Of a stretch of DNA of 64,000 nt, positions 25,484-57,271 are shown piece after piece; positions within the stretch are counted from its first letter, which is position 1; each line of letters begins with the position of its first letter. The stretch is from Escherichia phage alia. The translations under genes and the position numbers were made by a program. The notes beneath the pieces are model-generated. The model saw only the letters and a list, made by a program, of their open reading frames with translations, was not told where the DNA came from and ran no database searches. Location of the stretch: the sequence record NC_052655.1; one strand, written 5' to 3'.

Positions 25484-26146
25484 TTATTTAATATTCAATT
25501 TTGCACAAAGACGTTGTACCGCTTTGGCATCGAACAAACTCCCACGAATAGTTCTCTTTCCTGATTCATTCAGATGCTTTGCAATCGTCATATATGGCGT
25601 TTTACAAGCTCTGTATGCAACTAAAGAATCTTTTAAAGAAAGTGCAAACTCTTTTGAGCGTTTTGCTTCTTCCGTTTTCGTATAATCTGTTCTTTTGTAT
25701 TTAGGGTTTGCTGCACCAAGAAGCGTTCCCTTCGCTTTTGCTACCTTAAGGCTCTTCTTAACACGATCAGATATTGCACGAGCCTCTTCTTCTGCCAGAA
25801 CTGCTAAAATATTTATTATCATATTTTCAGCGGAGGGCATAGTGGCTATCCGTACATTAATCATCTCTAACAAGGTTGCAACAGAAGCTGTGTTACGTCC
25901 AAGACGGTCAACCTTAGCAACAACAAGTGTAGCACCTGTTTCTTTGCAAAGATTAACAGCTTTTACAAGCTCTCTACGTTGCTTCCAATCGCCTTTACCA
26001 GAATAAAACTCTGCAAAGCTACCTACAATAGTATAATTTTCTTGTGAATCCAGGAAGCGTTGGATATCTGCTTCCTGTGATTCTATACCATACTGGTTGC
26101 CTTGTTGTTTCTTCTTAGAAAGTCGATGATACAGTACAAACTTCAT
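25484..26146 (-). CDS. serine recombinase (resolvase/invertase family) with C-terminal HTH
   Basis: ORF track 25484..26200; start moved to ATG 26146 (AGGAGG upstream). Catalytic YHRLSKKKQ (Y-x-R-x-S) and ATLVVAKVDRLGRN motifs. Confidence 0.7.
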   Translation of the reverse strand: MKFVLYHRLSKKKQQGNQYGIESQEADIQRFLDSQENYTIVGSFAEFYSGKGDWKQRRELVKAVNLCKETGATLVVAKVDRLGRNTASVATLLEMINVRIATMPSAENMIINILAVLAEEEARAISDRVKKSLKVAKAKGTLLGAANPKYKRTDYTKTEEAKRSKEFALSLKDSLVAYRACKTPYMTIAKHLNESGKRTIRGSLFDAKAVQRLCAKLNIK

Positions 26147-26203
26147 AATACCCTCCTGTTCTGTTGCAGGAAGTATGCACGACCTTAACGCTAAAGTCAA
26201 CAG

Positions 26204-26407: not shown

Positions 26408-26658
26408 TATTCATCCCAATCGTTGTTGCGAGCACTTTCAAGAACCTTGACAACTTCTGCGTACTCTACAGCTAAACCAGCACACACTTCAGCTTGTTTT
26501 GCAATTGCTTGCTTAAAGAACATAGCGATTGCAACACTCTGTGTTGTGTGAATGTTATCTGCTTTAGTTGATACATGAAGATCAAAATCTTCTTCATCAA
26601 AGGTGAGTTCCATAGTAACAATAAATTTCTCGGTCATAAAAATGCTCCTCTTAAACAA
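26407..26658 (-). CDS. hypothetical protein (83 aa)
   Basis: ORF track. Confidence 0.45.
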   Translation of the reverse strand: MFKRSIFMTEKFIVTMELTFDEEDFDLHVSTKADNIHTTQSVAIAMFFKQAIAKQAEVCAGLAVEYAEVVKVLESARNNDWDE

Positions 26659-27160
26659 AATAGAAAGGTTGAGTTAAACCCAGCCTGTTTTTTGGGTCGT
26701 AGACGTACCAAGCATATGCTGTCTTATCAGTACCACCTGCAACAAAAGATGGTCGTTCAGAAAGAACAATCAAATTTGTTGGTGGGTTCTGTTTATGGAA
26801 TTCCCTTCGTTTAATAGACTCTAGGAATCCAAGACGCAACAAGTATATGCAAACGTCTGCTTCTTTTAAGCTCTTTTGCAAGAACTCAAGTGCAAGTCTG
26901 AATGGTGGATTTGTGATTATAATATCCGGCTTAGTATGCCATTCGTGGTTAAAATAATCCTTCCCCTCTTCTAACTCACAATATTCTGATCCTTCTGGAA
27001 AATGTTGATAAATTGCAGCAGCAGCGCCTTTACACGGTTCTGCAAAAATAAAACCTTCTTCTTTAAGGTTATTAAAATCTATTACACTAAATAATGCATT
27101 TATACATTTTTGTGGAGTAGGATAGTAATCAGTTGGTGGACGATCATACTTATTTGCCAC
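26651..27160 (-). CDS. DNA N6-adenine (or N4-cytosine) methyltransferase, small
   Basis: DYYPTP near N-terminus and TNPPF (D/NPPY/F catalytic motif IV) in a 169-aa protein. Confidence 0.65.
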   Translation of the reverse strand: MANKYDRPPTDYYPTPQKCINALFSVIDFNNLKEEGFIFAEPCKGAAAAIYQHFPEGSEYCELEEGKDYFNHEWHTKPDIIITNPPFRLALEFLQKSLKEADVCIYLLRLGFLESIKRREFHKQNPPTNLIVLSERPSFVAGGTDKTAYAWYVYDPKNRLGLTQPFYFV

Positions 27161-27578
27161 TACTTAAAATCTCCTCTTTTGTGATTTCAGGGTTTTCTTC
27201 AAAAACCATAATATCTCTTAAGAATGTTAATTCTTCCATAGATACTGGTATTGTATCTTCTTCTGTTTTTCGTTTACATAAGTCGTCAAGAAAGTTTTTA
27301 ACGCTTTCTGACACATCGTAAAATTTCAACAGTTGATAATCACAGGAGGAGATCCTATCTAGTTCTAACATTCTTTCTAAGATATTTTCTGTGTTGCCGT
27401 ACAACACACGAACTTCTCCGAAAGGGTTGACTAAATATTGTGAAGTTCTGAACCATCCCTTTTTAGATACAGTGTAACGCTGTTCTGCTAAACTTTCAAT
27501 AAAATTTTTAGCCCTTTTACAGTTTTGTTCTAAAGAGTAGTAGGCTTTTTCTACAAAGATTACAGGTACTGGTAACAT
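27150..27578 (-). CDS. hypothetical protein (142 aa)
   Basis: ORF track. Confidence 0.5.
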   Translation of the reverse strand: MLPVPVIFVEKAYYSLEQNCKRAKNFIESLAEQRYTVSKKGWFRTSQYLVNPFGEVRVLYGNTENILERMLELDRISSCDYQLLKFYDVSESVKNFLDDLCKRKTEEDTIPVSMEELTFLRDIMVFEENPEITKEEILSSGK

Positions 27579-27617
27579 ATCTCCTCCTAATAACCCCGTG
27601 AGGGGGTTTATGTTAGA

Positions 27618-28271
27618 TTAATTATCAGAGGATACTTTATCAAGTTTTTCAGAGACTGTCAATACTTTTTCTTGTGATTCTTTCATTTCTGCTAAAATAC
27701 TTTCAGCTTCATCACTATCAGGATCACCAGTCAACAGCATACTAATTAGTTGCTCCTTGCTGAAGTTCAGAATATCTTCCGCTGTTAGCTCCAGTTGTTC
27801 TTCGATCTCTTCGACAAAAGTTTCACCGCCTGAAAAAGCATCTCGTAGTTTTGCAACTTCCATCGCTTCTTCTGGGGTTGCCCCAGCGTCTAAAGCTGCT
27901 AAAGCAAAATCTGCCCCACTACCAACAGCATAGTAATCTTCAGTTAAAGGATATGCTCGCGTTGGATTATTACCCTCGTGCATATAAATTTTACCGTCTG
28001 GGTGAACAACCAATGCCACAAACTCTTCATCTTCTTTATCAGGATCTGACTGGATCACCAAACCTGGGATTGTCTCTTGTGCTGCCTGGCACTGTAAGTT
28101 TTGTTCGAACCAAGAAAAGAAAGTCAGGATAGAAGACAGACGTCCTGCACCACCAACAAGGTAATCCCCAATTTTACGCACTTTCTTGAAATTTAAAGTG
28201 TCTACTCGATTACCTACTGTTACTTTACCATCAGATAGAATTTTGTTATGTGTTGCAATAATTGTTGTCAT
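27618..28271 (-). CDS. HslV-like N-terminal-threonine peptidase with acidic C-terminal extension
   Basis: Begins MTTIIA (Thr2 as candidate nucleophile, as in HslV MTTIVSV); KKVRKIG and AVGSGADFALAA align by eye with HslV KKVRRL and AIGSGGPYAQAA; acidic tail of about 50 aa. Confidence 0.6.
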   Translation of the reverse strand: MTTIIATHNKILSDGKVTVGNRVDTLNFKKVRKIGDYLVGGAGRLSSILTFFSWFEQNLQCQAAQETIPGLVIQSDPDKEDEEFVALVVHPDGKIYMHEGNNPTRAYPLTEDYYAVGSGADFALAALDAGATPEEAMEVAKLRDAFSGGETFVEEIEEQLELTAEDILNFSKEQLISMLLTGDPDSDEAESILAEMKESQEKVLTVSEKLDKVSSDN

Positions 28272-28762
28272 TGTACTTCCTCCTGTAGTGTTTTAAGGAC
28301 TGCTTTACCACCGCTTACATACTTACGTAGGTAATCAATAGCTCTTAGTGTTTCTTTATCCACAAGAATCTTATTAGTTCTTGTCAATGGGTGATTCAGT
28401 AAGTCACTGCAATTTCTTACTAACATAGATTTCTTGTGAAAGATACTGCTAAGAAAAAGAAGTTTAGAATCTTCTTCATCAATCAGGAGTAGTTCTGAAT
28501 TAGACCCAGCTACATTTATTATACACTCAAACAAGCCTTCTTGACTATCAGATAATTCCTGGTAATATTTAGTTAGCCAATCCTCTCCTTTTAACCAACT
28601 AAAAAACATCTGAACTTTTTGCAAAGTTGTCATGTTCTCTAAACGAAGAGATATTTCTTTTTCAATCTTGTCAATATAAATCTGTCTAAACTCATTCGGC
28701 TTAACTAAGCCAGCTTGATAGCATTCATCAATACCATTGCGATCAATCTCAATTAGCGTCAT
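28268..28762 (-). CDS. hypothetical protein (164 aa)
   Basis: ORF track; ATGA overlap. Confidence 0.5.
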   Translation of the reverse strand: MTLIEIDRNGIDECYQAGLVKPNEFRQIYIDKIEKEISLRLENMTTLQKVQMFFSWLKGEDWLTKYYQELSDSQEGLFECIINVAGSNSELLLIDEEDSKLLFLSSIFHKKSMLVRNCSDLLNHPLTRTNKILVDKETLRAIDYLRKYVSGGKAVLKTLQEEVQ

Positions 28763-28798
28763 TTAACCTCCATAACAGGCATCCTTGCCTTGTAATTA

Positions 28799-29551
28799 TT
28801 AATATACTTCCGTGATGAACTGAGACAAACGGGAACGTTGGTTATCAGCAGTTGTCATTTCAACATAACCAATAAAATCTACAATAGCTTCCCTTTCTCC
28901 TTCTTCGTTAATAGGAACAACACGATCTAACAAATCACCTAACCCGTTAGCTCTTCGTTTAATTGCATATGTTTGATTAACATCACCCATAATGACAATA
29001 CGTGTATTAAGACCTGCTCGCTCAAGGAGAAGTTTTACTGTGTTTGGTGACATAAGTTGAACTTCATCAATAAGAATAATGCTGTTATCCCACGTAGCAC
29101 CTAGTGCATAGTTCGGAATATTAAGTTCAATTTTTCCACTTGCAATATCGTTTTCCAATTTATTTGCAGTCATAAACTGTTGGAAAATTCTTTTAGTTGA
29201 CTCGTAGTGTGCTGCTAGTTTATCAGTCTTATCTCCAGATAAGAAACCGATTTGGTCATCACCTACTTCTGTCGGGTTTTTAAGGAAAATCAACTTTCTG
29301 AAGTCACCAGCTTTAAGCATTTGCAATGCTTTCCATAGTGCTGTTGTCGTTTTTCCTGTTCCTGCTGGGGCATTAACAATGGTTAAATCATTCCAAACCA
29401 TGCTTCTTACAATAGCTTCTTGATTCCCAACAGGGGTAAATTCATCAAGACGGTAATCATCATTTCCTACTGCTTTAGCCGCATAACGACTGGCACGTTT
29501 GTCATCATTGGCTGCTGATTGACGACGAGCCTTTGCGGTTTTATTTCCCAT
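28799..29551 (-). CDS. phoH: PhoH-like ATPase
   Basis: Walker A NAPAGTGKTT, Walker B IILIDEVQ, and MGDVNQT motif typical of the PhoH family. Confidence 0.85.
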   Translation of the reverse strand: MGNKTAKARRQSAANDDKRASRYAAKAVGNDDYRLDEFTPVGNQEAIVRSMVWNDLTIVNAPAGTGKTTTALWKALQMLKAGDFRKLIFLKNPTEVGDDQIGFLSGDKTDKLAAHYESTKRIFQQFMTANKLENDIASGKIELNIPNYALGATWDNSIILIDEVQLMSPNTVKLLLERAGLNTRIVIMGDVNQTYAIKRRANGLGDLLDRVVPINEEGEREAIVDFIGYVEMTTADNQRSRLSQFITEVY

Positions 29552-29566
29552 GTTTGCACTCCTTAT

Positions 29567-29588
29567 AAAAGGGGCTTTCGCCCCTTTG
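29567..29588 (-). terminator. terminator hairpin (GGGGCTTTCGCCCC family) directly followed by RBS
   Basis: AAAGGGGC-TTTC-GCCCCTTT between lysozyme stop and phoH start; minus-strand U-run then AAGGAG RBS. Confidence 0.45.
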
Positions 29589-29589
29589 T

Positions 29590-30090
29590 TTAGTTATAAG
29601 CGTCTAATGTTCCAGTTTTAAGCACCTGAATTACACGCTCTGCGCGATTAGGCGTTTGGCGATACCATTTACTTTTACGTAAATTTATAGAGGCTTGAGT
29701 ATAATATGAATTACTCACTAAAGTCAAGCTATTTTTGAAAGATTCTGCACCTTTCAATCCCATTTGAAATACCATATTAATAATAGCCATTTTACGATTA
29801 GGACTTACTTTATCGTAAATAGGAGATAGTATGGTACTTGAATGGATTTGTTGTATCGCTTTCTTTACGTCACCCTCAAAGATTTTTCTAGCTTCCGCTT
29901 CAGTAATAACCCCATTAGTTTTTCTACCTACTAAGTTATCAAGAATGCGTATAGCTTCTGATTTATCTTTAAGTTTTGTCAGAAGGTGTCCAATACCAAC
30001 CGTCCAATACCCTTCGGTATCAGTATATACAGTTAGCTTTAGTCCTTCATCAAAACGTAACATATCAAACACATCAACTACTTTAGCCAT
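29590..30090 (-). CDS. T4-type lysozyme (GH24 endolysin)
   Basis: MLRFDEGLKLTVYTDTEGYWTVGIGHLLT and C-terminal KSKWYRQTPNRAERVI are near-identical in pattern to phage T4 lysozyme (catalytic Glu/Asp/Thr triad positions conserved). Confidence 0.9.
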   Translation of the reverse strand: MAKVVDVFDMLRFDEGLKLTVYTDTEGYWTVGIGHLLTKLKDKSEAIRILDNLVGRKTNGVITEAEARKIFEGDVKKAIQQIHSSTILSPIYDKVSPNRKMAIINMVFQMGLKGAESFKNSLTLVSNSYYTQASINLRKSKWYRQTPNRAERVIQVLKTGTLDAYN

Positions 30091-30102
30091 GTTTTCCTTA
30101 TA

Positions 30103-30246
30103 TTAGTCGCCCTCCCCATGATCTAGCTCTTGAAACAGTAGGTGTTCAGGAGACATTTCACGTTTAGGCTTCGTCTTTTTAGTTTGGGACTTAAGCTCTG
30201 TTGCCAAAGCACGAGAAAAGATCTTACGTTTCTGTTTACCTTTCAT
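30103..30246 (-). CDS. small basic protein (47 aa)
   Basis: Not in ORF track. Minus-strand GGAG RBS then ATG; translation MKGKQKRKIFSRALATELKSQTKKTKPKREMSPEHLLFQELDHGEGD. Confidence 0.35.
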   Translation of the reverse strand: MKGKQKRKIFSRALATELKSQTKKTKPKREMSPEHLLFQELDHGEGD

Positions 30247-30250
30247 ATTG

Positions 30251-30517
30251 TTACTCCGCAATCTGAGCCATGAATTCACGTAGTTCAGAAAAACCTCCTA
30301 CGTGGGTTAGCTGTTCACCATCTTCCACAAAAATCTGAGGGAATGTGCGTGGTAGAACACCTGTTTTCTCTAAAACCAGATTCTGAAGCTGATCTAAAGA
30401 ATAGTCTTCATCTAAGGTAAGATATTTAAAATCCTGTTCACGCTGTTCCAGTAGAATCTTAGCGTTAGTGCAGAAAGGACAATTTGGTTTACCGTAGATA
30501 ATAAAATTCATTTTCAC
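30251..30517 (-). CDS. glutaredoxin/NrdH-like redoxin
   Basis: Active-site CPFC at residues 13-16 in an 88-aa thioredoxin-fold-sized protein; located beside the nucleotide-metabolism genes. Confidence 0.8.
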   Translation of the reverse strand: MKMNFIIYGKPNCPFCTNAKILLEQREQDFKYLTLDEDYSLDQLQNLVLEKTGVLPRTFPQIFVEDGEQLTHVGGFSELREFMAQIAE

Positions 30518-31344
30518 TCCTTGTTTAAAAGTATAGTTAAAGTTCTTACAATACCGCTATCAACACTTCGCGGATTTAAAGTAGGATCTGTTTTTAAATA
30601 AGATGTTGCTGGTCTGACTGCTTTAGAATTATAGGTTGAAGCAGATACAGGATTAACTGTAACAGATAAATCTATAACAAGAAATATCTTACGTGCAAAA
30701 TCATACCAAGAAATATAATCTGCACCTGCATAGTGTACAATTTTACTATTTACACCATCTTTTACAAGTTTAAAAATTGTTTCTGCCAGATCAGGTGCAT
30801 AAGTAGGACATGATAAATGATCACATACTACATTAAATTCTTTTTGACCACCGTTGTAGCGTTCCAACATAGTTTTCAAAAAGTTATGTCCAAATTCACT
30901 ATAAACAGAAGCTGTTCTGATAATAAGTGCTGTAGGACAAACTGTTTGTACTAAAGTTTCACCTAATTGTTTACTGTAACCGTAGGTGTTCAAGGGGTTT
31001 GTTTCACTATCTTCTGTGCCAGCAACATGCCCATCAAAAACATAGTCTGTTGAAATATGTACAAACTGTATCAGTAAATCATTACATGCTTTGGCAATGT
31101 TTGTTGCACCGTATGCATTAACATTTATACAGGTGTTAACATCTTCTTCAGCTTTATCTACTGCTGTGTAAGCCGCACAATTCACAACAACATCAGGCAC
31201 ATGCTGTACAAGACTATTCATAACATCTTTAAAGTTGGTAATGTCTACATCACTTGCTTCAATCAAAATAACATCTTCGGGCGCAACTTTTGCCAAAGAC
31301 TGTCCTAATTGACCTTTTGAACCAAAGATTAAAAATTTTGTCAA
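30514..31344 (-). CDS. rmlD: dTDP-4-dehydrorhamnose reductase
   Basis: N-terminal FLIFGSKGQLGQ Rossmann motif, length 276 aa, last gene of the rmlB-A-C-D order. Confidence 0.8.
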   Translation of the reverse strand: MTKFLIFGSKGQLGQSLAKVAPEDVILIEASDVDITNFKDVMNSLVQHVPDVVVNCAAYTAVDKAEEDVNTCINVNAYGATNIAKACNDLLIQFVHISTDYVFDGHVAGTEDSETNPLNTYGYSKQLGETLVQTVCPTALIIRTASVYSEFGHNFLKTMLERYNGGQKEFNVVCDHLSCPTYAPDLAETIFKLVKDGVNSKIVHYAGADYISWYDFARKIFLVIDLSVTVNPVSASTYNSKAVRPATSYLKTDPTLNPRSVDSGIVRTLTILLNKE

Positions 31345-31895
31345 AATATGATCTCCTTTAGTGTTTTGGCTTGCTGATCTTTTTGTGACAAGATAGGTTT
31401 AAAATTAATATCATTAAAGATTAAATCAAAACCCCAATCTATATTGATATCTGGATCATTCCACGCAAGACTACACTCTGAAGTCGGATCGTAATATTCT
31501 GTACATTTATATTCAAAATCAGCAATGTCGCTAATCACAACAAAGCCATGAGCGAAACCAGGAGGAATCCAAAATTGTGTTTTATTCTTTTCAGATAAGA
31601 GAACACCTACCCATTCTCCAAATGTTGGACTACCAACCCTAATATCTACAGCAACATCATAAACTTCACCACGAACACAACGTACTAACTTCCCTTGTGG
31701 GTTTTTCTTTTGAAAATGAAGCCCACGTAGAACTCCTCGAATAGAACGTGAATGGTTATCTTGGACAAAGTTTTGTTTACCTATGTATTGATCATATAAA
31801 GCCTGATTAAAACTTTCTAAGAAAAAACCACGTTCATCTCCGTAAACGTCAGGTTGAATGATCAACAAATCTTCGATTTTTGTTGCTTGAATCAT
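31341..31895 (-). CDS. rmlC: dTDP-4-dehydrorhamnose 3,5-epimerase
   Basis: 184-aa cupin; ERGFFLESF and LRGLHFQ motifs characteristic of RmlC. Confidence 0.85.
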   Translation of the reverse strand: MIQATKIEDLLIIQPDVYGDERGFFLESFNQALYDQYIGKQNFVQDNHSRSIRGVLRGLHFQKKNPQGKLVRCVRGEVYDVAVDIRVGSPTFGEWVGVLLSEKNKTQFWIPPGFAHGFVVISDIADFEYKCTEYYDPTSECSLAWNDPDINIDWGFDLIFNDINFKPILSQKDQQAKTLKEIIF

Positions 31896-31906
31896 TTAAT
31901 TCCCCC

Positions 31907-32776
31907 TTATTTTAATTTAAGTAAATACTTACCGTAGTCTGTTTTACTTAAAACCTCTCCAGAACTTTTTACAGAGTCTAAAGTAATCCATTCATTTTTA
32001 AAAGCAATCTCTTCTAGGCATGCAACCTTCATACCTTGTTGCTTTTCTATTGCATGAACAAATTGAGATGCTTCCATAAGACTTTCATGTGTTCCTGTAT
32101 CCAGCCAAGTGAAACCTCTTCCTAGTTTACAGACACGTAAAGCCTTTTCTTTCCAGTACATCTCATTTATATCTGTAATCTCTAACTCCCCTCTAGCAGA
32201 AGGTTTAACGCTCTTAGCTTTCTGTATAACAGAATTATCGTAAAAGTACAAGCCTGTAATTGCATAGTTGCTTTTTGGTGCTTTTGGTTTTTCCTCAATA
32301 CTCACCACTGTACCTTCAGAATCAAACTCAACAACACCAAATCTTTCAGGATCATTTACGTGATACCCAAAAATATTAGCTCCACCATTCTTTTCAATAT
32401 GTTCTTTAGCAGAATCTAAAATGCTACCAAAACTCTGACCAAAGAATAAATTATCACCTAGCACAAGTGCTACAGAATCTTCACCAATAAAGTTCTCACC
32501 AATAATAAAGGCTTCTGCTAAACCTTTTGGACTGTTCTGTACTGCATACTGTAGGGAAACACCAAAAGAAGAACCATCACCTAAAAGATTTACAAAATTA
32601 ATTTGATCTTCTGGTGTTGTAATTATTAGTATTTCCCTAATTCCAGAAAGCATTAGGACAGAGAGTGGATAATAAATCATAGGCTTATCGTAAATTGGTA
32701 ATAGTTGTTTACTAACCCCTTTAGTAACTGGGTAAAGTCTTGTTCCGCTACCACCTGCTAAGATAATACCTTTCAT
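31907..32776 (-). CDS. rmlA: glucose-1-phosphate thymidylyltransferase
   Basis: N-terminal [18 protein letters not shown] (G-x-G-T-R-L nucleotidyltransferase signature), 289 aa. Confidence 0.9.
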
Positions 32777-32784
32777 ACTCCTCC

Positions 32785-33774
32785 TTAAACTTTATTTTCC
32801 CACCACTCTTTGTTATCTACATACCAATCAATGGTTGAATAAAGTTTTTCTTCAAATGTGCCTTTAGCTTTCCACCCTAATTCCTTTTCGATCTTATAAG
32901 GATTCACTTCATATCTCAGATCATGCCCAGGTCTATCTGTAACCATCTCAATTAGGCTACAAGCATCTGTTTCAGATGGATACACCGCATCCATATAATC
33001 ACAAATCATATAGATTACATCAATATTAGTTCTAGGGTTTCTGCTCCCAATATTATATGTTTCTCCAGATTTGCCTTTAGTTACTACTAGGTGTAATGCT
33101 TCTGCGTGATCGTCAACGTATAACCAGTCTCTTACTTGAAGACCATTGCCATAAACAGGGATTGGTTTATTCATCAAGATATTTGTTATCGTTTTAGGTA
33201 TTAGTTTTTCTGGATGATGATATGCTCCAAAATTATTTGAACAATTTGTTAGAACTGTCGGAATACCATAAGTACGATGCCACGCTCTTACCAAATGATC
33301 GCTTGCTGCCTTAGATGCAGCATATGGACTACTTGGCTTATAAGGATTCTGTTCTGTAAACGGATAATCCCCCTCTTCCATATCACCATATACTTCATCT
33401 GTTGAAATATGATGGAACATTTTAAGATTTGATTTATCTCCCATTAAACGAACAGCTTCTAGGAGATTAAATGTCCCAACAATATTTGAATTTATAAAAA
33501 CACTCGGTGATGCTATTGAATTATCTACGTGACTTTCTGCTGCAAGATGCATTATATAATCTGGATTAACATCTGCCACAATCTTAGCAGTTAACTGCGC
33601 ATTTGTCAAGTCAACACGACAAAACTTTACATTGGGTGTTTCTGATAAATTTCTAGGGTCTGAAGCGTAACCCCATTTATCTATAACGTAAATATCATTT
33701 TTAGTATTTTTAGCCAGGAAACGAACTACCGCACTTCCAATAAAGCCTAAACCACCTGTTACTAAGTATTTCAT
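32785..33774 (-). CDS. rmlB: dTDP-glucose 4,6-dehydratase
   Basis: N-terminal [12 protein letters not shown] Rossmann motif; SDR Tyr/Lys catalytic pair (YAASKAA); 329 aa. Confidence 0.85.
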
Positions 33775-33968
33775 TTAGTCTCCTTCCAATTATTCCCTTC
33801 AGTAAAAATAATACCTTCATAAAACAACCATCTGGAACCTTTTTCAACAGGAACAGGAATCTCTTCTTCAGTAAAGTTATAAACCTCTCTAGCATCTTCT
33901 AAAAGTGATGCAAATGTTTTTGGACTTACTGTTACGCGAGGAGCATTGATCAGTTGATCTAGCATCAT
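33771..33968 (-). CDS. hypothetical protein (65 aa)
   Basis: ORF track 33771..34061; start moved to the internal ATG-ATG preceded by minus-strand AAGGAGG. Confidence 0.4.
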   Translation of the reverse strand: MMLDQLINAPRVTVSPKTFASLLEDAREVYNFTEEEIPVPVEKGSRWLFYEGIIFTEGNNWKETK

Positions 33969-33981
33969 TCTACTATCCTCC

Positions 33982-34308
33982 TTACCAAACGTGTTGAGAA
34001 ATAATAGTTTCCGTTTCAATGTTATATTTTTCAAGAAGTTGTGCGTAGGCTTCTTTTGCATTCTTATTTAGTTGCTCAAGATCTACAGCTATACTTCCTT
34101 CGCCACCTTCTAAATAAATGCCATATATGCAATAAGATTCATCAGCATCATAGAAAGGAGAGATACGGCTTAAATCAAGACCTTCTTGTAAGAACCAATT
34201 AAGATCTCCATCAAATTCTTCTTCAATTCTAGGATCTTCTCCTACAGCCTCTTCCCATTTATTAAAAGGTGCACCCTGTAACATACGCCATGCAATATCA
34301 ACCCCCAC
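33982..34308 (-). CDS. hypothetical acidic protein (about 100-108 aa)
   Basis: ORF track (GTG start at 34308); the alternative in-frame ATG at 34284 would remove the overlap with the small upstream ORF. Confidence 0.45.
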   Translation of the reverse strand: MGVDIAWRMLQGAPFNKWEEAVGEDPRIEEEFDGDLNWFLQEGLDLSRISPFYDADESYCIYGIYLEGGEGSIAVDLEQLNKNAKEAYAQLLEKYNIETETIISQHVW

Positions 34309-34443
34309 TATCTTCCTCCTCTTCTTTTTCTTCTATATGAACGAAACCTAAACCGTTACAATTCCAACAAGGAATAAATTGTTCCATACTAACAATAAAA
34401 TTCCCAGTGCCGCCGCAGATAGGACAAATACTTACATCGTCCA
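34297..34443 (-). CDS. small zinc-ribbon protein (48 aa)
   Basis: Not in ORF track. Minus-strand GAGGAG RBS then ATG; translation MDDVSICPICGGTGNFIVSMEQFIPCWNCNGLGFVHIEEKEEEEDSGG has CxxC...CxxC. Confidence 0.4.
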
Positions 34444-34446
34444 TTA

Positions 34447-34629
34447 TTAAAGCTCCTCAATCTTTTCTAACATCTGTTTTAACTCATTCTCTGTTAACAG
34501 AATTTCTGTGATACCATCATAAGTTTCTACCATCAGAGTAAAACATTTCTCTCCATCTGAACACACAAAAGCACCACCTTCATCTTCTGTTAAGTCAGAA
34601 TTAATATCTACATCAACAAAATCAATCAT
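34447..34629 (-). CDS. hypothetical protein (60 aa)
   Basis: ORF track 34447..34653; start moved to the internal ATG preceded by AAGGAG. Confidence 0.45.
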   Translation of the reverse strand: MIDFVDVDINSDLTEDEGGAFVCSDGEKCFTLMVETYDGITEILLTENELKQMLEKIEEL

Positions 34630-34840
34630 CTTTTTCTCCTTTGATAATTTCAAACTTGGCTACACCATTAACTATAATATGACCGCAAGACATAACTCCT
34701 AGCCAATGATCACCATTCTTTTTTAAACGTTTGCCGTAAACATCACAGAAACCATTCTGTAATTCGGAAGCCTCATAAGAGGCTCCCTTTTCGAAAACGT
34801 CTTTGAAGTCAGAAATTAATCCAACACAAAGTAGTTTCAT
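34622..34840 (-). CDS. hypothetical protein (72 aa)
   Basis: ORF track; start abuts the nrdB stop. Confidence 0.45.
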   Translation of the reverse strand: MKLLCVGLISDFKDVFEKGASYEASELQNGFCDVYGKRLKKNGDHWLGVMSCGHIIVNGVAKFEIIKGEKDD

Positions 34841-35925
34841 TAGAAGTCTAACTCCTCGTCATCACTTACATCTTTATTTGCTGAATTCAGTTTGTAAGCT
34901 GTAATTTGGATCTCTTGTGCTGCTGCTTGAATTTGGTCTGGATTTAACCAAACATCCATCCAAGGCAGTGGACTTTTCTTCGGTGCACGGAATTTGTGTT
35001 TCATTTTCAGTCTGCGATAGATAGGCGCAGCATTGAAGTAAACCCAAAGTTTGAACAACTCTGCGTTACCACCAACGATAATCCTTCCTTCACTAAACAG
35101 ATAGTCACACCAATCTTCCTCTTGTCCAACTACCGTGTCAAGAATTTCTGTCAGAACGTCGATATTATCTTCGTATACTTTTCTCCAGACAGGATCTTTC
35201 AGCAGTGCATCAATAATAGCATAATCCATTTTAACGTGCAATAGTTCATCCAACATAATTTTTTGAATGAGTTTAGCTGCACCTACAAACAGTTGCTGCT
35301 CTGCTAAGGCAAATGTTGCAGCAAAAGATGATATGAATTGAATGCCTTCCAGACCGATAAGTGCAATCATTCCTTTCAGAATCAGTAGACGAAGGTTATC
35401 ATCCTTCTCAATCAGACCTAGAGCATATTTATGTCCTGCCTCTGCCAGATCACTCATTATCTCTTCAACTATACCCATCCTCTGGAAGATTCTTTCGTTC
35501 TCCATAATCTGATCGATAACTTCATTTGGATTAGGGATACACTGACGAATAATTTCAGAATATGTCAAAGCGTGTAAAACTTCCATTTCTGATTGCTTCA
35601 TCATCATTGCACATGCTTCGTTGTTGCTTAAAAATGGTGCAAACAAAGTGATGATTGATTTAGCAAGTGAATCATTTTCCCATTGGAAGGATAGGTTTTT
35701 GATCATAACATCATAGTTGCTTTTAGAACAAGCTACGAAATCTTTTCGTGTCTGATCTAAGTTTACTTCGTTTTCATCCCAATCTTGCTGTTTTTGTAGT
35801 TTGTACAGACGATGCATTTCTGGGTATGTTACATTAATAGAATCAAAAATACCTAACTGTTCTCCCAAAAATACAGGATAGAAACCTTCTTTGTAAGTGT
35901 CGTTGTATAAATTAATCGCTGCCAT
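34840..35925 (-). CDS. nrdB: ribonucleotide reductase class Ia small (beta) subunit
   Basis: 361 aa; di-iron ligand pattern (EVLHALTYSE...; ExxH motifs) and acidic C-terminal tail (DDEELDF) typical of NrdB; directly downstream of nrdA. Confidence 0.85.
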   Translation of the reverse strand: MAAINLYNDTYKEGFYPVFLGEQLGIFDSINVTYPEMHRLYKLQKQQDWDENEVNLDQTRKDFVACSKSNYDVMIKNLSFQWENDSLAKSIITLFAPFLSNNEACAMMMKQSEMEVLHALTYSEIIRQCIPNPNEVIDQIMENERIFQRMGIVEEIMSDLAEAGHKYALGLIEKDDNLRLLILKGMIALIGLEGIQFISSFAATFALAEQQLFVGAAKLIQKIMLDELLHVKMDYAIIDALLKDPVWRKVYEDNIDVLTEILDTVVGQEEDWCDYLFSEGRIIVGGNAELFKLWVYFNAAPIYRRLKMKHKFRAPKKSPLPWMDVWLNPDQIQAAAQEIQITAYKLNSANKDVSDDEELDF

Positions 35926-36247
35926 TTAAATCCTCCACAATATCACACATTGCTTTTATTGTATCAATGTGTTTTCTCTCCATACCATTCTCTATGTAAG
36001 CCTTCTCTAATGCGTTCCATACACTCTTTGTGAGTAGTACAGTAACCTCTCCATCATATCTTGCCCTGGTTAAAGCATACCAGGTAGCTTCTGGATCATT
36101 GGAAGCCCATATTTCAACACTGGAAAATTGAAAACCTGCAATATGATGACAACACCAATCGAATGTAAAATCTTTACTATCTACCAGTGTATAATTGCCC
36201 CAACGCCTTTGTGGTGTTGCCCCAGGTAATACAACTAATGTAGGCAT
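35912..36247 (-). CDS. hypothetical protein (111 aa)
   Basis: ORF track 35912..36289; start moved to the internal ATG preceded by AAGGAGG and located after the terminator-like hairpin GGGGGCTTTGTCCCCC. Confidence 0.5.
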   Translation of the reverse strand: MPTLVVLPGATPQRRWGNYTLVDSKDFTFDWCCHHIAGFQFSSVEIWASNDPEATWYALTRARYDGEVTVLLTKSVWNALEKAYIENGMERKHIDTIKAMCDIVEDLNGSD

Positions 36248-36288
36248 ATTCCTCCTTAAGAAATGGGGGACAAAGCCCCCTAGCTTCA

Positions 36289-38550
36289 TTACATCTTACA
36301 AGCCTCACAACCGGATTCTTCATCCTCTTGAGCGAGTGAGGTTGCTGATTTTGTTCGACTATTTAGATAGTACAAAGATTTACCACCAAGTTTTGCAAAC
36401 TGAAGGATATATTGCATTTCTGATTTAATGGATAAACGACCACCTTCCATCTTAGAATAGTCAATCCACTTGTCACATGATGCACCTTGATCTAAGAATT
36501 TAGTCAACAGTCCATATGCTTCAGCCATATCTTTATCTGGCGTATCCCAAGCCGATTGGTAAATATCTTTTAGTTTATCGTAATCTGGCACAATAAACAA
36601 GACATTACCTTTTTGGCTTTGTTTATAAACTATAGTATCACGTACAGGATACACAGAGTTAGTCGTATTACTTACAAGACTACTGGACTCATTCGGAGCA
36701 ATAGCTGCTAATACACTATTTCGGATACCACCTTGTGCAATTATATCTTGTCGTAAACCTTCCCAATCCATTTTAAGTTTAAAATTGCCAATATCGTCTA
36801 CAGCTTTAGCGTAGGTATCAATAGGCAACCATCCTTCAGGCCATTTGGTTTTATGCATCCATTCTGCATTACCTTTCTCTTTTGCCAAACGAAGAGAAGC
36901 TCTTGCTAACCAGTAATAATGTCTTTCTGCTAATTCGTGAATTAGTTTTTTGCCGTAAGGATCTGAATAAGTAACAAAATTACTTGCCAGATAATGTGCC
37001 AGGTTTGTAATACCTACACCGATAGACCTACGTGCTTTAGCAGTGATTTCGTTATGTTTGAACGGATACTGCATTGTTTCAATAACATTATCAATAGTTA
37101 GAACGGTATAATATGCAACATCTTCATATTCTTCTGGTGTAACACGACCAGCTACAATAGAAGACAGGAAGCATAATGCCAATTCTTGATCTTCTGTATT
37201 CTCACCTGTGAAAAGATCAGTCATACTGTGAAATGCTTTCGTAGGTAAGAAAATTTCTTGGCACAAGTTTGACTGATAAATAACATCCTTAAACGGAGTA
37301 TGCTTATTAGCATTATCCGCAAAGAACATATAAATACGTCCTGTCTCTGCTCTTTGTGTAATAATTTCTGCCAGAAGATCTCGTGCTTTTACAAACTTCT
37401 TCTTAATTCGTTTGCGACTAACTTTTTCATATACTTCTTCAAACTCTTCCTCGCTTTTATAAAGCGCCTCATAGAGTTCTGGTGCTTCGTCATAACTGAC
37501 TAGCATCCAATCTTTGCCTTTTGCTGCACGGCGCAGGAAAGCATTGTTTACTACAATAGAGTAATCAAGTTTATCTACTCGTTTTTCACTAACAGTAGTT
37601 GGGTTTTTCAAACGTACCAGATCTTCAAAATCAGGTTCTAATATTGTAAACGTTACTGTTGCACTTCCACCACGACTTGCTTGTTTTGATGCTCCAACAC
37701 TTGTTTCCATCCATTTCAGATATGGTAAAAGACCACCGTGAACGATACGGTTGTTCTTAACACCTTGTCCTGTAGCACGGGTTTGTAGGTTAACACCAAT
37801 ACCTGCATTATTCAAGGTATATTCATGAGCAAGATAGTTAGCAATTGCTAAAGATTCTGCTGTATCATCTGCTCTAAACAGACAACAAGAAGCACTACCT
37901 TTAATCTTAGTACGCAAAGTTGTTAAATAAGGTGATGGTAAATTAATCTTAAGATCACTTACGTAGGTATATAGACGTTTAATGTCTTCTACTCTGCGAT
38001 CTTTTGGTTGGATTTCCATTACCTTCATTGCTACACCAATGAATAAAAACTGTGGTGATTCAAAAACCACATCATTGATCGCATCTTTCACAAGATACTT
38101 ATCAACCATCTGACGCAGTACGGAATAACCATAAGTTAGGTTTTTATCATGATTGATAATTTTACCAATCTCAATAATTTCTTCTTCTGTATAATCCATT
38201 TTCCCCCAATAGCCTTTACTTACAGACATATTGTAGAAATCCAGGAGGGAGGGGATATTGTGATATCCCCCATGAGCCTGTTTATAGATCATACCAAGAA
38301 GTAACCGACCTGCCATATCACTATATGCCTGATCTTTCTTATCAATACATGCTGCTATCATAGCTTTATGTAAATCACGAGTAGGCACACCGTCGTAACA
38401 ACGTTTAACAGCTTCGAGTTCTATTTCAGACCAATTTAATTTACCAGCAGCAAACTCTGACCATTTACGAAGTTTTTCTGGATTAAATTCTTCTTTCTTG
38501 CCGTTTGTTTTTGTTACATAACGGATAGATTTGCTTAGATACTGAGTCAC
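36289..38550 (-). CDS. nrdA: ribonucleotide reductase class Ia large (alpha) subunit
   Basis: 753 aa; N-terminal ATP-cone-like region (VTKTNGKKEEFNPEKL), active-site Cys/Asn/Glu context (NLCQEIFLP) and C-terminal redox cysteine pair (SGCEACKM). Confidence 0.9.
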   Translation of the reverse strand: MTQYLSKSIRYVTKTNGKKEEFNPEKLRKWSEFAAGKLNWSEIELEAVKRCYDGVPTRDLHKAMIAACIDKKDQAYSDMAGRLLLGMIYKQAHGGYHNIPSLLDFYNMSVSKGYWGKMDYTEEEIIEIGKIINHDKNLTYGYSVLRQMVDKYLVKDAINDVVFESPQFLFIGVAMKVMEIQPKDRRVEDIKRLYTYVSDLKINLPSPYLTTLRTKIKGSASCCLFRADDTAESLAIANYLAHEYTLNNAGIGVNLQTRATGQGVKNNRIVHGGLLPYLKWMETSVGASKQASRGGSATVTFTILEPDFEDLVRLKNPTTVSEKRVDKLDYSIVVNNAFLRRAAKGKDWMLVSYDEAPELYEALYKSEEEFEEVYEKVSRKRIKKKFVKARDLLAEIITQRAETGRIYMFFADNANKHTPFKDVIYQSNLCQEIFLPTKAFHSMTDLFTGENTEDQELALCFLSSIVAGRVTPEEYEDVAYYTVLTIDNVIETMQYPFKHNEITAKARRSIGVGITNLAHYLASNFVTYSDPYGKKLIHELAERHYYWLARASLRLAKEKGNAEWMHKTKWPEGWLPIDTYAKAVDDIGNFKLKMDWEGLRQDIIAQGGIRNSVLAAIAPNESSSLVSNTTNSVYPVRDTIVYKQSQKGNVLFIVPDYDKLKDIYQSAWDTPDKDMAEAYGLLTKFLDQGASCDKWIDYSKMEGGRLSIKSEMQYILQFAKLGGKSLYYLNSRTKSATSLAQEDEESGCEACKM

Positions 38551-38561
38551 TTCCTCTCCTA

Positions 38562-38822
38562 TTAATTGTGCATGTTTAGAACATCTACATCATAACCGCC
38601 ACGCATCTCATTATATAAGCCATTTGCGTATAGAAAACCTTCAAAATGATCTATACCTTCAAAACCTTTTGCCTTTGCTTTGCGGTCTGCTTCTTGTCTT
38701 TTTGGGGATAATCTTTTAGATGTATCAAGGATAACTGTTACATTGCAACCTAATGTTTCATCAAAATAGACTTCAATTTCACAGCCTTCATATTTATTAC
38801 TTTCTGTCATTTGGCCTCTCAA
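38562..38822 (-). CDS. hypothetical protein (86 aa)
   Basis: ORF track. Confidence 0.5.
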   Translation of the reverse strand: MRGQMTESNKYEGCEIEVYFDETLGCNVTVILDTSKRLSPKRQEADRKAKAKGFEGIDHFEGFLYANGLYNEMRGGYDVDVLNMHN

Positions 38823-39233
38823 TTAGAATTCAGAATCATCATCTCGTGATGGATCATGTTCATTTCCGAAGTCTTCCATTTTGATATGAGAGCTACCCCA
38901 ACCTGTAAAATCTTCTTCTCCAAAGTGCAAAATATCTACACCTTGATAGATTCGCTTATATTTATAGTCTTGTCGAACTGGGAAAGTATACAATGTAGTA
39001 TTTGCAAACACCACACGTCGATTATTGTTACTACGAATATTAACACCACGTTCTACTGTATAATGTCCATCGGTAGACATACCAAGCATTACTAATGCTG
39101 CTCGCAATGTAGTGTTATGATACTCGTGAGGAATTTTTCCTCCGTGCTTTTTAGCCATTTCTTTCCAGATCGGTGTAGCCTTAATGGTAGACATACTTAC
39201 GGTCGCCCAAATGGTTGTATTAATTAGTGACAT
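38823..39233 (-). CDS. hypothetical protein (136 aa)
   Basis: ORF track. Confidence 0.5.
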   Translation of the reverse strand: MSLINTTIWATVSMSTIKATPIWKEMAKKHGGKIPHEYHNTTLRAALVMLGMSTDGHYTVERGVNIRSNNNRRVVFANTTLYTFPVRQDYKYKRIYQGVDILHFGEEDFTGWGSSHIKMEDFGNEHDPSRDDDSEF

Positions 39234-39330
39234 AAATTCTCCTTCTCTCTTTTAAGGAGAGCATAGCTCTCCTAACGTTAGCCTATACTACACGAATCTC
39301 AATTAAAAGTCAACTATAATTTTAAGTTGA

Positions 39331-40302
39331 TTACCATTTTGTATGGTTAGTCAAAAGTTGACGATGTTGAATCCAACCACAGAAGTTTCCACTCCACAAA
39401 CGATGTTTACGATCCATATGTGTAATACCTTCTTCCCAAGAAGTAGGGAACGGAGGAATATTAATACCACCTTTCTGTTGTTTTAATCCTGACAAATCCA
39501 TTTCTTTCATTGGCGTTGCCTGGTGTTCAAACGGAGATGCATGTACCTTTTGTCCAGACAGCAAACGAGAATAGATATCCAATGCTTTATCTTTAGTATC
39601 ATTCAATTTACGATAACTTACCTGAGCGCAACAAGAAGCTGAAATAGCTTTTGCTTCCTCTTCTGTCAACATTTTCTCGTTGGAGAAGGTTTCACCTAAG
39701 AAATAACGGATCATACCAGTTTCTGGATCTCGATCACGATTAACGTAAGGTGTATGCCATTCCCCTGGGAAAAGAAGATATGGTTCAGAAGATTCATACA
39801 GTTTTTTAATTTCTTTAGCAAGAGCCTCAATAGTAGGATCTGCATCAGCATCTACGCGCAACCACAAGAAGTTTTCTAGCTCTGTAGCGGTGACTACAGT
39901 CTTCATACGCTGGAATGGTTCTAGTAGGCGGTTTGCAACCTGTTTATGATAACCAGCAAGGGCAAACTCTTCTGCAAAACGTGCAGCACTTAGTGCAGCC
40001 AAGTCCCACCATTCTTTTGCAGTGTAACCTGCATCAATCAGGGCATCGTGATCTGTGCCTTTATCTTGCATACCTGGTTGGTTAGCACCAAAACGATAAG
40101 GACGTGCTGGAGATTGCCGTACCATTTCAATTAGAGTTTTAACAGGGATAGCTCGACTTGATGCAGCATTACGAGAAAACAAACGATGCGTCATCAATTC
40201 AGAGTGAATGATTCGGGGATATTCAAGTTCAAAGGTAACAATATCCTTACCTTCAGATGTTTGAGAGTGTGCAATAATTTTTGCTGAAATAGAGTTTGTC
40301 AT
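39331..40302 (-). CDS. ThyX-like flavin-dependent thymidylate synthase family protein
   Basis: THRLFSRNAASSR segment fits the ThyX signature (R/T)HR-x7-S-x-R; 323 aa, longer than typical ThyX; lies next to tdk and nrdAB. Confidence 0.6.
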   Translation of the reverse strand: MTNSISAKIIAHSQTSEGKDIVTFELEYPRIIHSELMTHRLFSRNAASSRAIPVKTLIEMVRQSPARPYRFGANQPGMQDKGTDHDALIDAGYTAKEWWDLAALSAARFAEEFALAGYHKQVANRLLEPFQRMKTVVTATELENFLWLRVDADADPTIEALAKEIKKLYESSEPYLLFPGEWHTPYVNRDRDPETGMIRYFLGETFSNEKMLTEEEAKAISASCCAQVSYRKLNDTKDKALDIYSRLLSGQKVHASPFEHQATPMKEMDLSGLKQQKGGINIPPFPTSWEEGITHMDRKHRLWSGNFCGWIQHRQLLTNHTKW

Positions 40303-40311
40303 TATTTCTCC

Positions 40312-40902
40312 TTAAGGTAGTAAAATACTTTCAATTTCTTCCCACTGATTATCTAAACCAGTGATAATTACATTAGGAAGTTTCTTTAACTCTTCCAAGT
40401 ATGGATCTTCGTAAATAGTGTTGAAATATATTTTCAACGTTTCATCTGGAAATAGGACAAGATTTTCAGCCCTATCGTCAATAGTTACGTCGCAAGGTAA
40501 TAAGTATTTTTCTTTTGTTGCGAAAAAGCCATTACCAGATGTTCTACTAAAGTCCACTTTATCTAAAGATCGTGTTACGTGTCTATATTTAGAACTAAGG
40601 TGTCCACCCTTAGTGTGGCTTGCTATAGATATATTAGCTCCATTTGCAATTATACGATGAACAACATCTGTACTATTAGGTACTACTCCCATAGTATCAT
40701 ATAGATGTTGGTTATCCCAAAAAGAGTAAGGATCTACACCAAATTGCTTTTTAAAATCAGGAAAATATTTCGTAATATCATAATGCACAGTCTTTTGTGC
40801 CTTATCAAACTTGATATTAGATCTACTTACCGCATTTAACCAACTCAACCATTCTATATCGGCAGGAGCTATTACTAAATCCCAATCACATACTAGACGC
40901 AT
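40312..40902 (-). CDS. putative 5'(3')-deoxyribonucleotidase-like HAD-family protein
   Basis: ORF track 40312..41016; start moved to ATG 40902 to limit overlap with tdk. N-terminal LVCDWDLVIAPAD resembles the DxD nucleophile motif of HAD-type deoxynucleotidases. Weak call. Confidence 0.4.
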   Translation of the reverse strand: MRLVCDWDLVIAPADIEWLSWLNAVSRSNIKFDKAQKTVHYDITKYFPDFKKQFGVDPYSFWDNQHLYDTMGVVPNSTDVVHRIIANGANISIASHTKGGHLSSKYRHVTRSLDKVDFSRTSGNGFFATKEKYLLPCDVTIDDRAENLVLFPDETLKIYFNTIYEDPYLEELKKLPNVIITGLDNQWEEIESILLP

Positions 40903-41449
40903 TATTTCTCCTGTTATAACATTTTCTACACATTGTTTCGTAAATGTCTTCTCCTCCAATAACAATCTGTTCTTTAGAGTCGATAAGTCTAGCATTGAAA
41001 ATAGCTTTTCTTCCACATTTACAAATGCTTTTCAATTCTGTAATTGAATCTGCTATGGCTAATAACCGTTCAGAACCTTCAAACAATTCTGTAGCAAAAT
41101 CTGTTTTAAGCCCATAACAGAATACAGGAATATCGTAATTATCTACCACATCTCCAAGAATGTCAACCATATCTTTAGTTAGGAATTGTGATTCGTCCAC
41201 AAATACTGCATCTACTGGATTTTCTTTAAGCTGTGTATAAATTTCCAGCATATCTTCTTTTGTTTTAACTGGTTTTGCTTCCTCTTTAATACCTATCCTA
41301 GAAGCAATAGCACAACCAGATCTGGTATCTAAAGCTGAAGTTAAAAGAAGAACTTTCATATTTCTTTCTTTATAGTTCCAAGCTGTTTGTAGCAGATGTG
41401 TGCTTTTACCACTGTTCATCGGACTATATCGGAAATAAAGTTTAGCCAT
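40886..41449 (-). CDS. tdk: thymidine kinase
   Basis: MAKLYFRYSPMNSGKSTHLLQ (P-loop), VFVDESQFL, and C-terminal zinc-ribbon cysteines (CxCG...C..C) align position by position with bacterial/T4 Tdk. Confidence 0.9.
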   Translation of the reverse strand: MAKLYFRYSPMNSGKSTHLLQTAWNYKERNMKVLLLTSALDTRSGCAIASRIGIKEEAKPVKTKEDMLEIYTQLKENPVDAVFVDESQFLTKDMVDILGDVVDNYDIPVFCYGLKTDFATELFEGSERLLAIADSITELKSICKCGRKAIFNARLIDSKEQIVIGGEDIYETMCRKCYNRRNNASSM

Positions 41450-41494
41450 ATTTTCTCCTCTAACGCTCCCATTTGTGGGAGCGATAATACTTTA

Positions 41495-48297: not shown

Positions 48298-48487
48298 CTT
48301 TAACCTCCAGTTGCGAAAGAACCCATTTAGCCATTTCAATTTCACCGTGCAGTCTGCCTAGTTCATAGGCATCATCAATATTACCACCAGTGTAATCATC
48401 CACCATAAAGTAAGGATCTTCGCTACTGTTAGGTGCGTTTGCAATTCTCGTTAGTTCTTCAATAAATGTCATAGTTACCCTTACCAA
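48284..48487 (-). CDS. hypothetical protein (67 aa)
   Basis: ORF track. Confidence 0.4.
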   Translation of the reverse strand: MVRVTMTFIEELTRIANAPNSSEDPYFMVDDYTGGNIDDAYELGRLHGEIEMAKWVLSQLEVKDETN

Positions 48488-48705: not shown

Positions 48706-48708
48706 ATA

Positions 48709-49029: not shown

Positions 49030-49038
49030 ACACTCTCC

Positions 49039-50376: not shown

Positions 50377-50377
50377 C

Positions 50378-57263: not shown

Positions 57264-57271
57264 TATTCAAG

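Follow-up and report, generated by a model that had tools for sequence, protein, structure and literature searches.

In bacteria, dTDP-L-rhamnose is made by the products of four genes, rfbBDAC/rmlABCD, found in the O-antigen clusters of E. coli, Salmonella and Pseudomonas. Here we analyse a complete set of these genes, rmlB-rmlA-rmlC-rmlD, in a 64,000-nucleotide stretch of the genome of Escherichia phage alia (NC_052655.1; this whole stretch is referred to as the window), where they lie at 30514-33774 on the minus strand. The phage proteins belong to the same four families as the bacterial enzymes and keep the same catalytic residues. In contrast to the bacterial genes, the phage set belongs to a lytic myovirus, where nrdB and a glutaredoxin gene flank it. 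It is arranged in the order B-A-C-D, lacks neighbouring O-antigen genes such as wzx/wzy or a rhamnosyltransferase gene, and includes two genes, rmlB and rmlA, that are optional within the clade.

Clusters of this kind have been described before. The region 30000-34500 has full-length matches of 98-99% nucleotide identity in 52 phage records, among them W22, PD114, phi92, PaulScherrer (Bas60) and Paula. These phages belong to the phi92-like genus Justusliebigvirus in the subfamily Stephanstirmvirinae, and their GenBank records already annotate the rml genes as such. The rml region of PaulScherrer is 98.4% identical to that of the window, and by coordinates the window corresponds to the last part of PaulScherrer, starting at ~88.7 kb, together with its initial 3 kb. 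Set against the published Stephanstirmvirinae rml clusters (phi92, phAPEC8, PaulScherrer/Bas60, Paula, W22, PD114 and others), the window is not materially different and represents one more isolate of an established genus. Four records labelled as Campylobacter phages A150, A145, C3 and A110a (MG065639, MG065645, MG065656 and MG065689) are also 98.6% identical to the region; these probably are Justusliebigvirus genomes that were mislabelled or entered as contaminants.

A function for the cluster has been proposed as well. Olsen et al. (2020) suggested, by analogy with T4, that hydroxymethylated nucleotides are glycosylated with rhamnose (PMC7552041). According to Maffei et al. (2021), the group is "exceptionally susceptible" to restriction-modification (RM) "despite a putative dTDP glycosylation machinery" (PMC8594841), and Vitt et al. 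(2024) repeated both the RM susceptibility and the DNA-glycosylation proposal (PMC10844046). Thus both the rml cluster and the hypothesis of DNA rhamnosylation are known from the literature. What is new here is the core/accessory structure of the cluster, its link to glycosyltransferases (GTs), the finding of no DNA-acceptor-making enzyme and a signature of restriction avoidance. We propose, with a probability that we put at roughly 0.55, that the cluster is a functional, vertically inherited dTDP-L-rhamnose pathway under purifying selection, which supplies the phage's own GTs with a donor for transfer to an acceptor other than DNA.

A complete rml gene set

The genes encode RmlB (dTDP-glucose 4,6-dehydratase, 329 aa, 32785-33774), RmlA (glucose-1-phosphate thymidylyltransferase, 289 aa, 31907-32776), RmlC (dTDP-4-dehydrorhamnose 3,5-epimerase, 184 aa, 31341-31895) and RmlD (dTDP-4-dehydrorhamnose reductase, 276 aa, 30514-31344), the last from a TTG start that overlaps the rmlC stop codon. 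The original prediction, made from the sequence alone, had placed four contiguous minus-strand genes of these families here, and searches with hidden Markov models bear this out. All four proteins exceed the equivalog cut-offs of the corresponding NCBIfam models: RmlB scores 441 bits against TIGR01181 (cut-off 365), RmlA 473 bits against TIGR01207 (cut-off 361), RmlC 260 bits against TIGR01221 (cut-off 156) and RmlD 254 bits against TIGR01214 (cut-off 224). Pfam agrees with these assignments, and RmlB is also matched by the Pfam families GDP_Man_Dehyd and Epimerase. Open reading frames (ORFs) overlap by 4 nt at the junction of rmlB with the ORF upstream of it and at the junction of rmlC with rmlD; the remaining gaps between rml genes are 8 nt and 11 nt.

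The active-site motifs of the four enzymes are retained. A full-length alignment with Salmonella RmlA (1iim) shows that GGSGTRL, LGDN, EEKP and WLDTGT are intact in the phage protein, and the alignment of RmlB with its Salmonella counterpart (1g1a) likewise shows intact GxxGxxG, STDE and YxxxK motifs. His63, Lys73 and Tyr133 (numbering of Salmonella 1dzr) are conserved in RmlC, as are GxxGxxG, STDYVF and YGxSK, a motif of the YxxxK type, in RmlD. The four genes make up a complete dTDP-L-rhamnose pathway, and the encoded enzymes are predicted to be active. Among solved structures, RmlA, RmlB and RmlC are nearest to the Salmonella and E. coli enzymes, whereas the best relatives of RmlD are the Clostridium/Bacillus proteins 1vl0 and 3sc6 and not Salmonella 1kbz, which suggests that the cluster has a mosaic origin.

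A conserved rmlC-rmlD core with accessory rmlB and rmlA

The gene order nrdA-x-nrdB-small ORFs-rml-grx-small-lysozyme-phoH is common to the window, phAPEC8, Citrobacter phage Tr1 and Klebsiella phage KP13-26, and the position of the glutaredoxin gene is kept in phAPEC8, Tr1, KP13-26 and Phapecoctavirus ESCO37. rmlC was found in all four of the Stephanstirmvirinae lineages examined (phAPEC8, Tr1, ESCO37 and KP13-26). Between lineages, the proportion of nonsynonymous differences (pN) in the rml genes is 0.14-0.31 and that of synonymous differences (pS) is 0.65-0.86, with synonymous sites saturated, and all the ORFs are intact. The Rml proteins are 55-79% identical between lineages, compared with 56-82% for PhoH, glutaredoxin and ThyX and 80-90% for NrdA and NrdB. 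The GC content of the rml genes (34-36%) and their GC content at third codon positions (19-23%) are near the values of the flanking phage genes. A blastn search of E. coli genomes found no copy with more than 80% nucleotide identity to the cluster. Together, the conserved synteny, the selection on these genes and the lack of an E. coli copy indicate that the cluster is an old, selected resident of these genomes.

These observations bear on whether the cluster could be a functionless passenger, that is, a fragment of a host rfb locus that was acquired recently and plays no part in the life cycle of the phage. The similarity of RmlA, RmlB and RmlC to Salmonella and E. coli enzymes fits such an origin, as do the loss of rmlB and rmlA from some lineages that remain viable and the presence of an rfbC gene in the laboratory host K-12. 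However, the same position and order are found in four lineages, pN is well below the saturated pS in ORFs that have stayed intact, and the E. coli genomes searched hold no close copy. The enterobacterial order, rfbBDAC, also differs from the phage order, and the affinity of RmlD to Clostridium and Bacillus enzymes argues that this is no simple host fragment. We therefore consider a passenger very improbable.

The cluster is not uniform across the subfamily. ESCO37 has been reported to lack rmlA and rmlB (PMC10269720), and indeed, in ESCO37 (OM386659, 32824-34562) and in KP13-26 (OP617743) the locus holds only rmlC-rmlD, with rmlB and rmlA cleanly absent and a 108-aa ORF similar to PHROG 15453 directly abutting rmlC. 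Both phages retain rmlC, rmlD and the GTs described below. RmlC was found in 104 Escherichia phage and 8 Klebsiella phage records and RmlD in 105 and 8; the corresponding numbers for the two GT types are 105 and 9 (GT-A) and 105 and 10 (GT-B). RmlA and RmlB were found in 86 and 88 Escherichia phage records, respectively, and no Klebsiella phage is among the ten names listed for either. rmlB and rmlA are thus missing from ~17 of 105 Escherichia phage records and from the Klebsiella lineage. The conserved core within the subfamily consists of rmlC, rmlD and the GTs, and rmlB and rmlA are accessory.

Glycosyltransferases that accompany the rml genes

The original prediction recognised no GT within the window, which is correct. 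A search beyond its borders, in near-identical genomes, revealed four GT-like genes. In PaulScherrer (MZ501100) they occupy 47580-50756 on the minus strand, ~70 kb from the rml genes and directly upstream of a small ORF, a primase/helicase gene and a DNA polymerase gene. The cluster encodes a GT-A enzyme with a DxD motif (PHROG 2456), two GT-B (GT4-like) paralogues (PHROG 7162, with weak Pfam matches to GT group 1) and a 187-aa GT-like protein; one GT-like protein belongs to PHROG 14179. The same cluster recurs throughout Stephanstirmvirinae and in distant metagenomic relatives, and is predicted to be present in the genome of the window. Just upstream of the GTs, at 52-59 kb in PaulScherrer, lie a set of tellurite-resistance-type genes (TelA, TerC, TerD and a vWA-TerF-like protein) and a SleB-like cell-wall hydrolase, which are kept in the distant metagenomic relatives L013 and L014.

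On another metagenomic contig, L011, an RmlB-like 4,6-dehydratase (31% identical to RmlB, with STDE and YxxxK intact) is encoded ~0.8 kb upstream of an orthologous GT-A (47% identical) and a GT-B, ahead of the primase/helicase gene. This arrangement physically links the synthesis of a 6-deoxyhexose to the GT cluster. An NCBIfam "rhamnosyltransferase" match to a GT orthologue on this contig is negligible (E=3.4e-4), and a scan of the four GTs themselves against NCBIfam gave no match. When the GT-A and GT-B families were used as profiles to search PDB sequences, only noise came back. AlphaFold models, based on alignments of homologues, are confident, and the folds do not reveal the acceptor.

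A virion protein is one candidate acceptor. In tblastn searches GT-A is 25-27% identical (E 1e-6 to 1e-8) to GTs encoded at the right genome end of cluster-F mycobacteriophages, and in Che8 the cluster-F GTs have been linked to capsid glycosylation (PMC11256854). The GTs lie away from the structural genes in both cases. However, the homology to the Che8 type is weak, the GT-A fold is generic, being common to many unrelated GT2-like enzymes, and no Ser/Thr-rich capsid tail is evident in the phage. As a hint of O-glycosylation we also considered Ser/Thr-rich C-terminal tails on the capsid and tail proteins, and these were unconvincing; only the sheath ends ...NSQNSNSSTVSS. Chloroviruses and Mimivirus carry rhamnose-containing virion glycans that are made with virus-encoded sugar-nucleotide enzymes, and we know of no glycosylated virion protein in a coliphage. 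Sugar-nucleotide genes in lytic phages are usually read in terms of serotype conversion, as the original prediction remarked. General Pfam scans, which were not an exhaustive search, found no member of the integral-membrane families GtrA, GtrB and GtrC that serve serotype conversion in temperate phages, and the records are described as those of lytic myoviruses.

The pathway might also work on sugar-nucleotide pools without any transfer of rhamnose. RmlC and RmlD would in this case divert dTDP-4-keto-6-deoxyglucose from the host synthesis of enterobacterial common antigen (ECA) or O-antigen, and the dTDP-rhamnose that builds up would then feedback-inhibit host RmlA/RffH, leading to a shutdown of envelope glycans or to the sparing of dTTP. 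dTDP-rhamnose is indeed an allosteric inhibitor of RmlA, the rml genes lie among genes for dNTP supply, and the unit that is conserved, rmlC-rmlD alone, depends on a substrate made by the host. The phages also recognise wecB-dependent surface glycans, assigned to ECA in BASEL-1 and revised to the NGR glycan in BASEL-2. A narrower version, that rmlC-rmlD starve the cell of ECA because ECA is the phage receptor, is weakened by this revision, which reassigns Bas60-62 to the NGR glycan. More generally, most members of the group carry rmlA and rmlB and would consume more dTTP, and dTDP is recycled after transfer, so that the saving in nucleotide would be small. Pool manipulation also leaves unexplained the co-occurrence of the rml genes with four GTs throughout the subfamily and the linkage of dehydratase and GT genes on L011. 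We regard pool manipulation as unlikely.

Restriction-site avoidance and DNA as a possible acceptor

Like Olsen et al., the original prediction considered hypermodification of DNA, in which dTDP-rhamnose would be the donor for a phage GT that rhamnosylates a base. Several features are in agreement with this. The rml genes lie inside a train of nucleotide-metabolism genes, and the GT cluster directly precedes the primase/helicase and DNA polymerase genes, an arrangement that is kept in distant metagenomic relatives. GT-A has weak matches to the Pfam family TAGT (PF20691; 23.3 bits against a cut-off of 27.5, E=6.7e-5, residues 16-75 only) and to PHROG 842, annotated as beta-glucosyl-HMC-alpha-glucosyltransferase. 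Both T4 glucosyltransferases, alpha and beta, have the GT-B fold, and the window encodes a Dcm-like C5 methyltransferase (20454-21443). As lytic coliphage myoviruses with GT-B enzymes, these phages resemble the T-even phages, and they have their own activated-sugar genes, as does RB69. There is a precedent for DNA modification with a phage-made sugar nucleotide in the arabinosyl-hydroxymethylcytosine of RB69/Mosigvirus (PMC8056088; PMC13390438).

Enzymes that would make an acceptor in DNA were sought among ~75 non-structural proteins of 120 aa or longer, drawn from the window and the remainder of PaulScherrer. A Pfam scan at E<=0.05 detected no ThyA-type hydroxymethylase (Thymidylat_synt), TET/JBP or 2OG-Fe(II) oxygenase among them, although remote homologues of acceptor-making enzymes could lie below the sensitivity of Pfam. 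In contrast to the T-even phages, these proteins thus include no recognisable dCMP hydroxymethylase. The only thymidylate-synthase-like gene encodes a divergent ThyX-like protein (323 aa, 39331-40302, minus strand), which matches the large PHROG 85 with 364 bits and Pfam Thy1 with 38 bits over residues 22-170 and has no significant match among PDB sequences. Together with Tdk and NrdAB, this protein implies canonical dNTP pools. The C5 and N6 DNA methyltransferases of the phage likewise weigh against a bulk or protective sugar modification. The weak TAGT match of GT-A and the C5 cytosine methyltransferase recall the TET/JBP-TAGT systems, but the match covers just 60 residues at a score under the gathering threshold, and the scanned proteins offer no TET/JBP dioxygenase as a partner. 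A set of four GTs, moreover, exceeds what monoglycosylation of DNA would need.

The composition of the DNA argues in the same direction. Of the 64 six-base palindromes, 13 are strongly underrepresented in the 64-kb window (z<-2), none is overrepresented (z>2) and 7 are absent despite an expectation of at least 5 occurrences. The avoidance extends to the 143-kb PaulScherrer genome, where 23 of 64 have z<-2, none has z>2 and 10 are absent by the same measure. In a 50-kb control from T4, the corresponding numbers are 2 of 64, none and none. Among the non-palindromic hexamers of the window, the share with z<-2 is 0.3%. Individual sites in PaulScherrer follow this pattern, with observed/expected counts of 0/46 for HindIII, 1/31 for PstI, 0/21 for PvuII and 0/21 for KpnI. 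GATC is not avoided, with an observed/expected ratio of 1.02, which fits protection by a Dam-like methyltransferase. We interpret the strong avoidance of palindromes as a mark left on DNA that is open to cleavage by restriction enzymes.

Published infection data on relatives are in agreement with this interpretation. Bas60-62 of the BASEL collection, which carry the operon, are the phages described as "exceptionally susceptible" to RM systems (PMC8594841). Picton et al. (2021) reported that the Durham phage Pau is reduced ~10^7-fold by BREX and is not sensitive to BrxU, an enzyme that cleaves DNA containing 5-methylcytosine, 5-hydroxymethylcytosine or glucosyl-5-hydroxymethylcytosine (PMC8565348). 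We infer, indirectly from PMC12210895, that Pau is Escherichia phage Paula, which carries the operon. A 2026 paper on DNA modification in the Durham Collection covered only BrxU-sensitive, T-even-like phages. The sensitivity to RM and BREX, the insensitivity to BrxU and the avoidance of palindromes make bulk or protective glycosylation unlikely. DNA of the T-even type, refractory to restriction and BREX and sensitive to type IV enzymes, is therefore not what the relatives and the palindrome counts point to, and the window shows no TET/JBP-TAGT system either, given the sub-threshold TAGT score and the lack of TET/JBP among the scanned proteins. The suggestion of a sugar hypermodification with a bulk or protective role is thus disfavoured, and DNA as the acceptor of the phage-made rhamnose seems to us distinctly unlikely.

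A sparse or site-restricted modification may still be compatible with these data. The replisome-adjacent GT-A and GT-B might rhamnosylate phage DNA with phage-made dTDP-rhamnose on an acceptor provided by an as yet unrecognised enzyme family. Such a modification would be so infrequent, or of such a kind, that it gives no protection from the RM, BREX and BrxU systems tried so far, and the route could lead through the Dcm-like C5 methyltransferase or the divergent ThyX-like protein. The chances of this are slim, in our estimate. If true, it would be without precedent both as a rhamnosylated DNA base and as a DNA modification that depends on a dTDP-sugar.

Gene neighbourhood of the rml locus

The placement of the rml genes amid genes of nucleotide metabolism is unusual, as the original prediction pointed out. 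The neighbours that it named, glutaredoxin, NrdA/NrdB, a ThyX-like protein, Tdk, an NT5C-like protein and a MazG-like protein (46262-46984), are all present; the NT5C-like protein scores 22.7 bits in Pfam, below the cut-off of 24.8. Their orientation, however, had been misread. Read along the minus strand, the rml genes are preceded on their 5' (upstream) side by nrdAB, thyX and tdk, and only glutaredoxin, lysozyme and PhoH genes follow downstream. Of the two methyltransferases that had been proposed, the Dcm-like C5 enzyme is supported, whereas the second (26651-27160), which is annotated in the GenBank records of relatives, had no Pfam match in this analysis.

Upstream of rmlB, small ORFs fill 33771-34840 on the minus strand; these belong to PHROGs 27883, 15453, 22146 and 4448, none of which has an assigned function, and a Pfam scan gave no match for the ORFs. 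They are preceded in the same gene train by nrdB (34840-35925, minus strand; Pfam Ribonuc_red_sm), one small ORF and nrdA (36289-38550, minus strand; identified from the annotation of relatives). On the other side, the glutaredoxin gene (30251-30511, minus strand; Pfam Glutaredoxin, E=1.4e-11), which is outside the rhamnose pathway, starts with an ATG at 30511, 3 nt past the rmlD stop codon and with GGAG in front of it, and is translationally coupled to rmlD. A scan for promoters and terminators over 27500-41500 found 47 promoters, compared with 48.7 in shuffled sequence, and 8 terminators, compared with 6.4. These counts equal the shuffled expectation, and thus do not define a transcription unit.

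Other features of the window

A group of 15 tRNA genes at 57271-59758 (plus strand) includes two each of tRNA-Met, tRNA-Leu and tRNA-Ser. A Sir2-family protein (18310-19122, minus strand), a PRPP-synthetase-like protein (53824-54717, plus strand) and an NAPRTase-family protein (54789-56522, plus strand), along with macro-domain, ComF-like PRTase, HAD and NADAR proteins encoded elsewhere in the genome, suggest a module for NAD/ADP-ribose metabolism or counter-defence. An RNA-repair-like set at 49039-51821 (minus strand) consists of a polynucleotide kinase (AAA_33), a T4-type RNA ligase, a metallophosphoesterase and a cREC_REC "cyclic-phosphate processing receiver" protein. The window also encodes a small resolvase-type serine recombinase (25484-26200, minus strand) and an HslV/proteasome-like subunit (27618-28271, minus strand), in a phage described as strictly lytic; the resolvase-type protein is the only recombinase seen in our scans.

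Discussion

We favour a role of the rml genes in providing dTDP-L-rhamnose during infection independently of the host; this sugar nucleotide would be the donor for the phage GTs. RmlC and RmlD would carry out the rhamnose-committed steps, from dTDP-4-keto-6-deoxy-D-glucose to dTDP-L-rhamnose. Their substrate is made across Enterobacterales by RffH/RffG for the synthesis of ECA. rfbC was detected by blastn in 2138 of 5426 complete E. coli genomes, that is, in at least 39%, which as a lower bound at blastn sensitivity means that up to ~61% may lack the gene. A phage with a very broad host range that needs dTDP-rhamnose could thus not leave the last two steps to its host. The host would supply the first two, which would explain why rmlC and rmlD are core genes and rmlB and rmlA accessory. 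The latter pair, which the window carries, would act as a booster. The rhamnose would then be moved to a virion protein or to a glycan of the host envelope; these two are candidates of similar standing, and either is more likely than DNA. Service as a donor for the GTs, which are co-inherited with the rml genes, would be the most economical use of dTDP-rhamnose.

Several points weigh against this proposal. The sequences of the GTs show no donor specificity for dTDP-rhamnose. The GT cluster was seen in relatives, and the window stops short of that region. The co-occurrence of rml genes and GTs is confined to one clade and may reflect shared ancestry instead of function. The position of the GTs beside the replisome genes and the sub-threshold TAGT match keep DNA in play. 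ESCO37 shows that rmlB and rmlA are dispensable. Finally, the argument from host genomes leans on an rfbC count that is a minimum.

More than 100 sequenced coliphages with a broad host range, several of them candidates for therapy, carry their own dTDP-rhamnose genes along with four GTs, which would amount to a private supply of this donor. If the acceptor is DNA, these phages would contain a new base modification. If it is a host glycan, these lytic phages would be remodelling the surface of the cell. If it is a virion protein, they would be, to our knowledge, the first glycosylated coliphages, which would bear on how phages used in therapy are recognised by the immune system.

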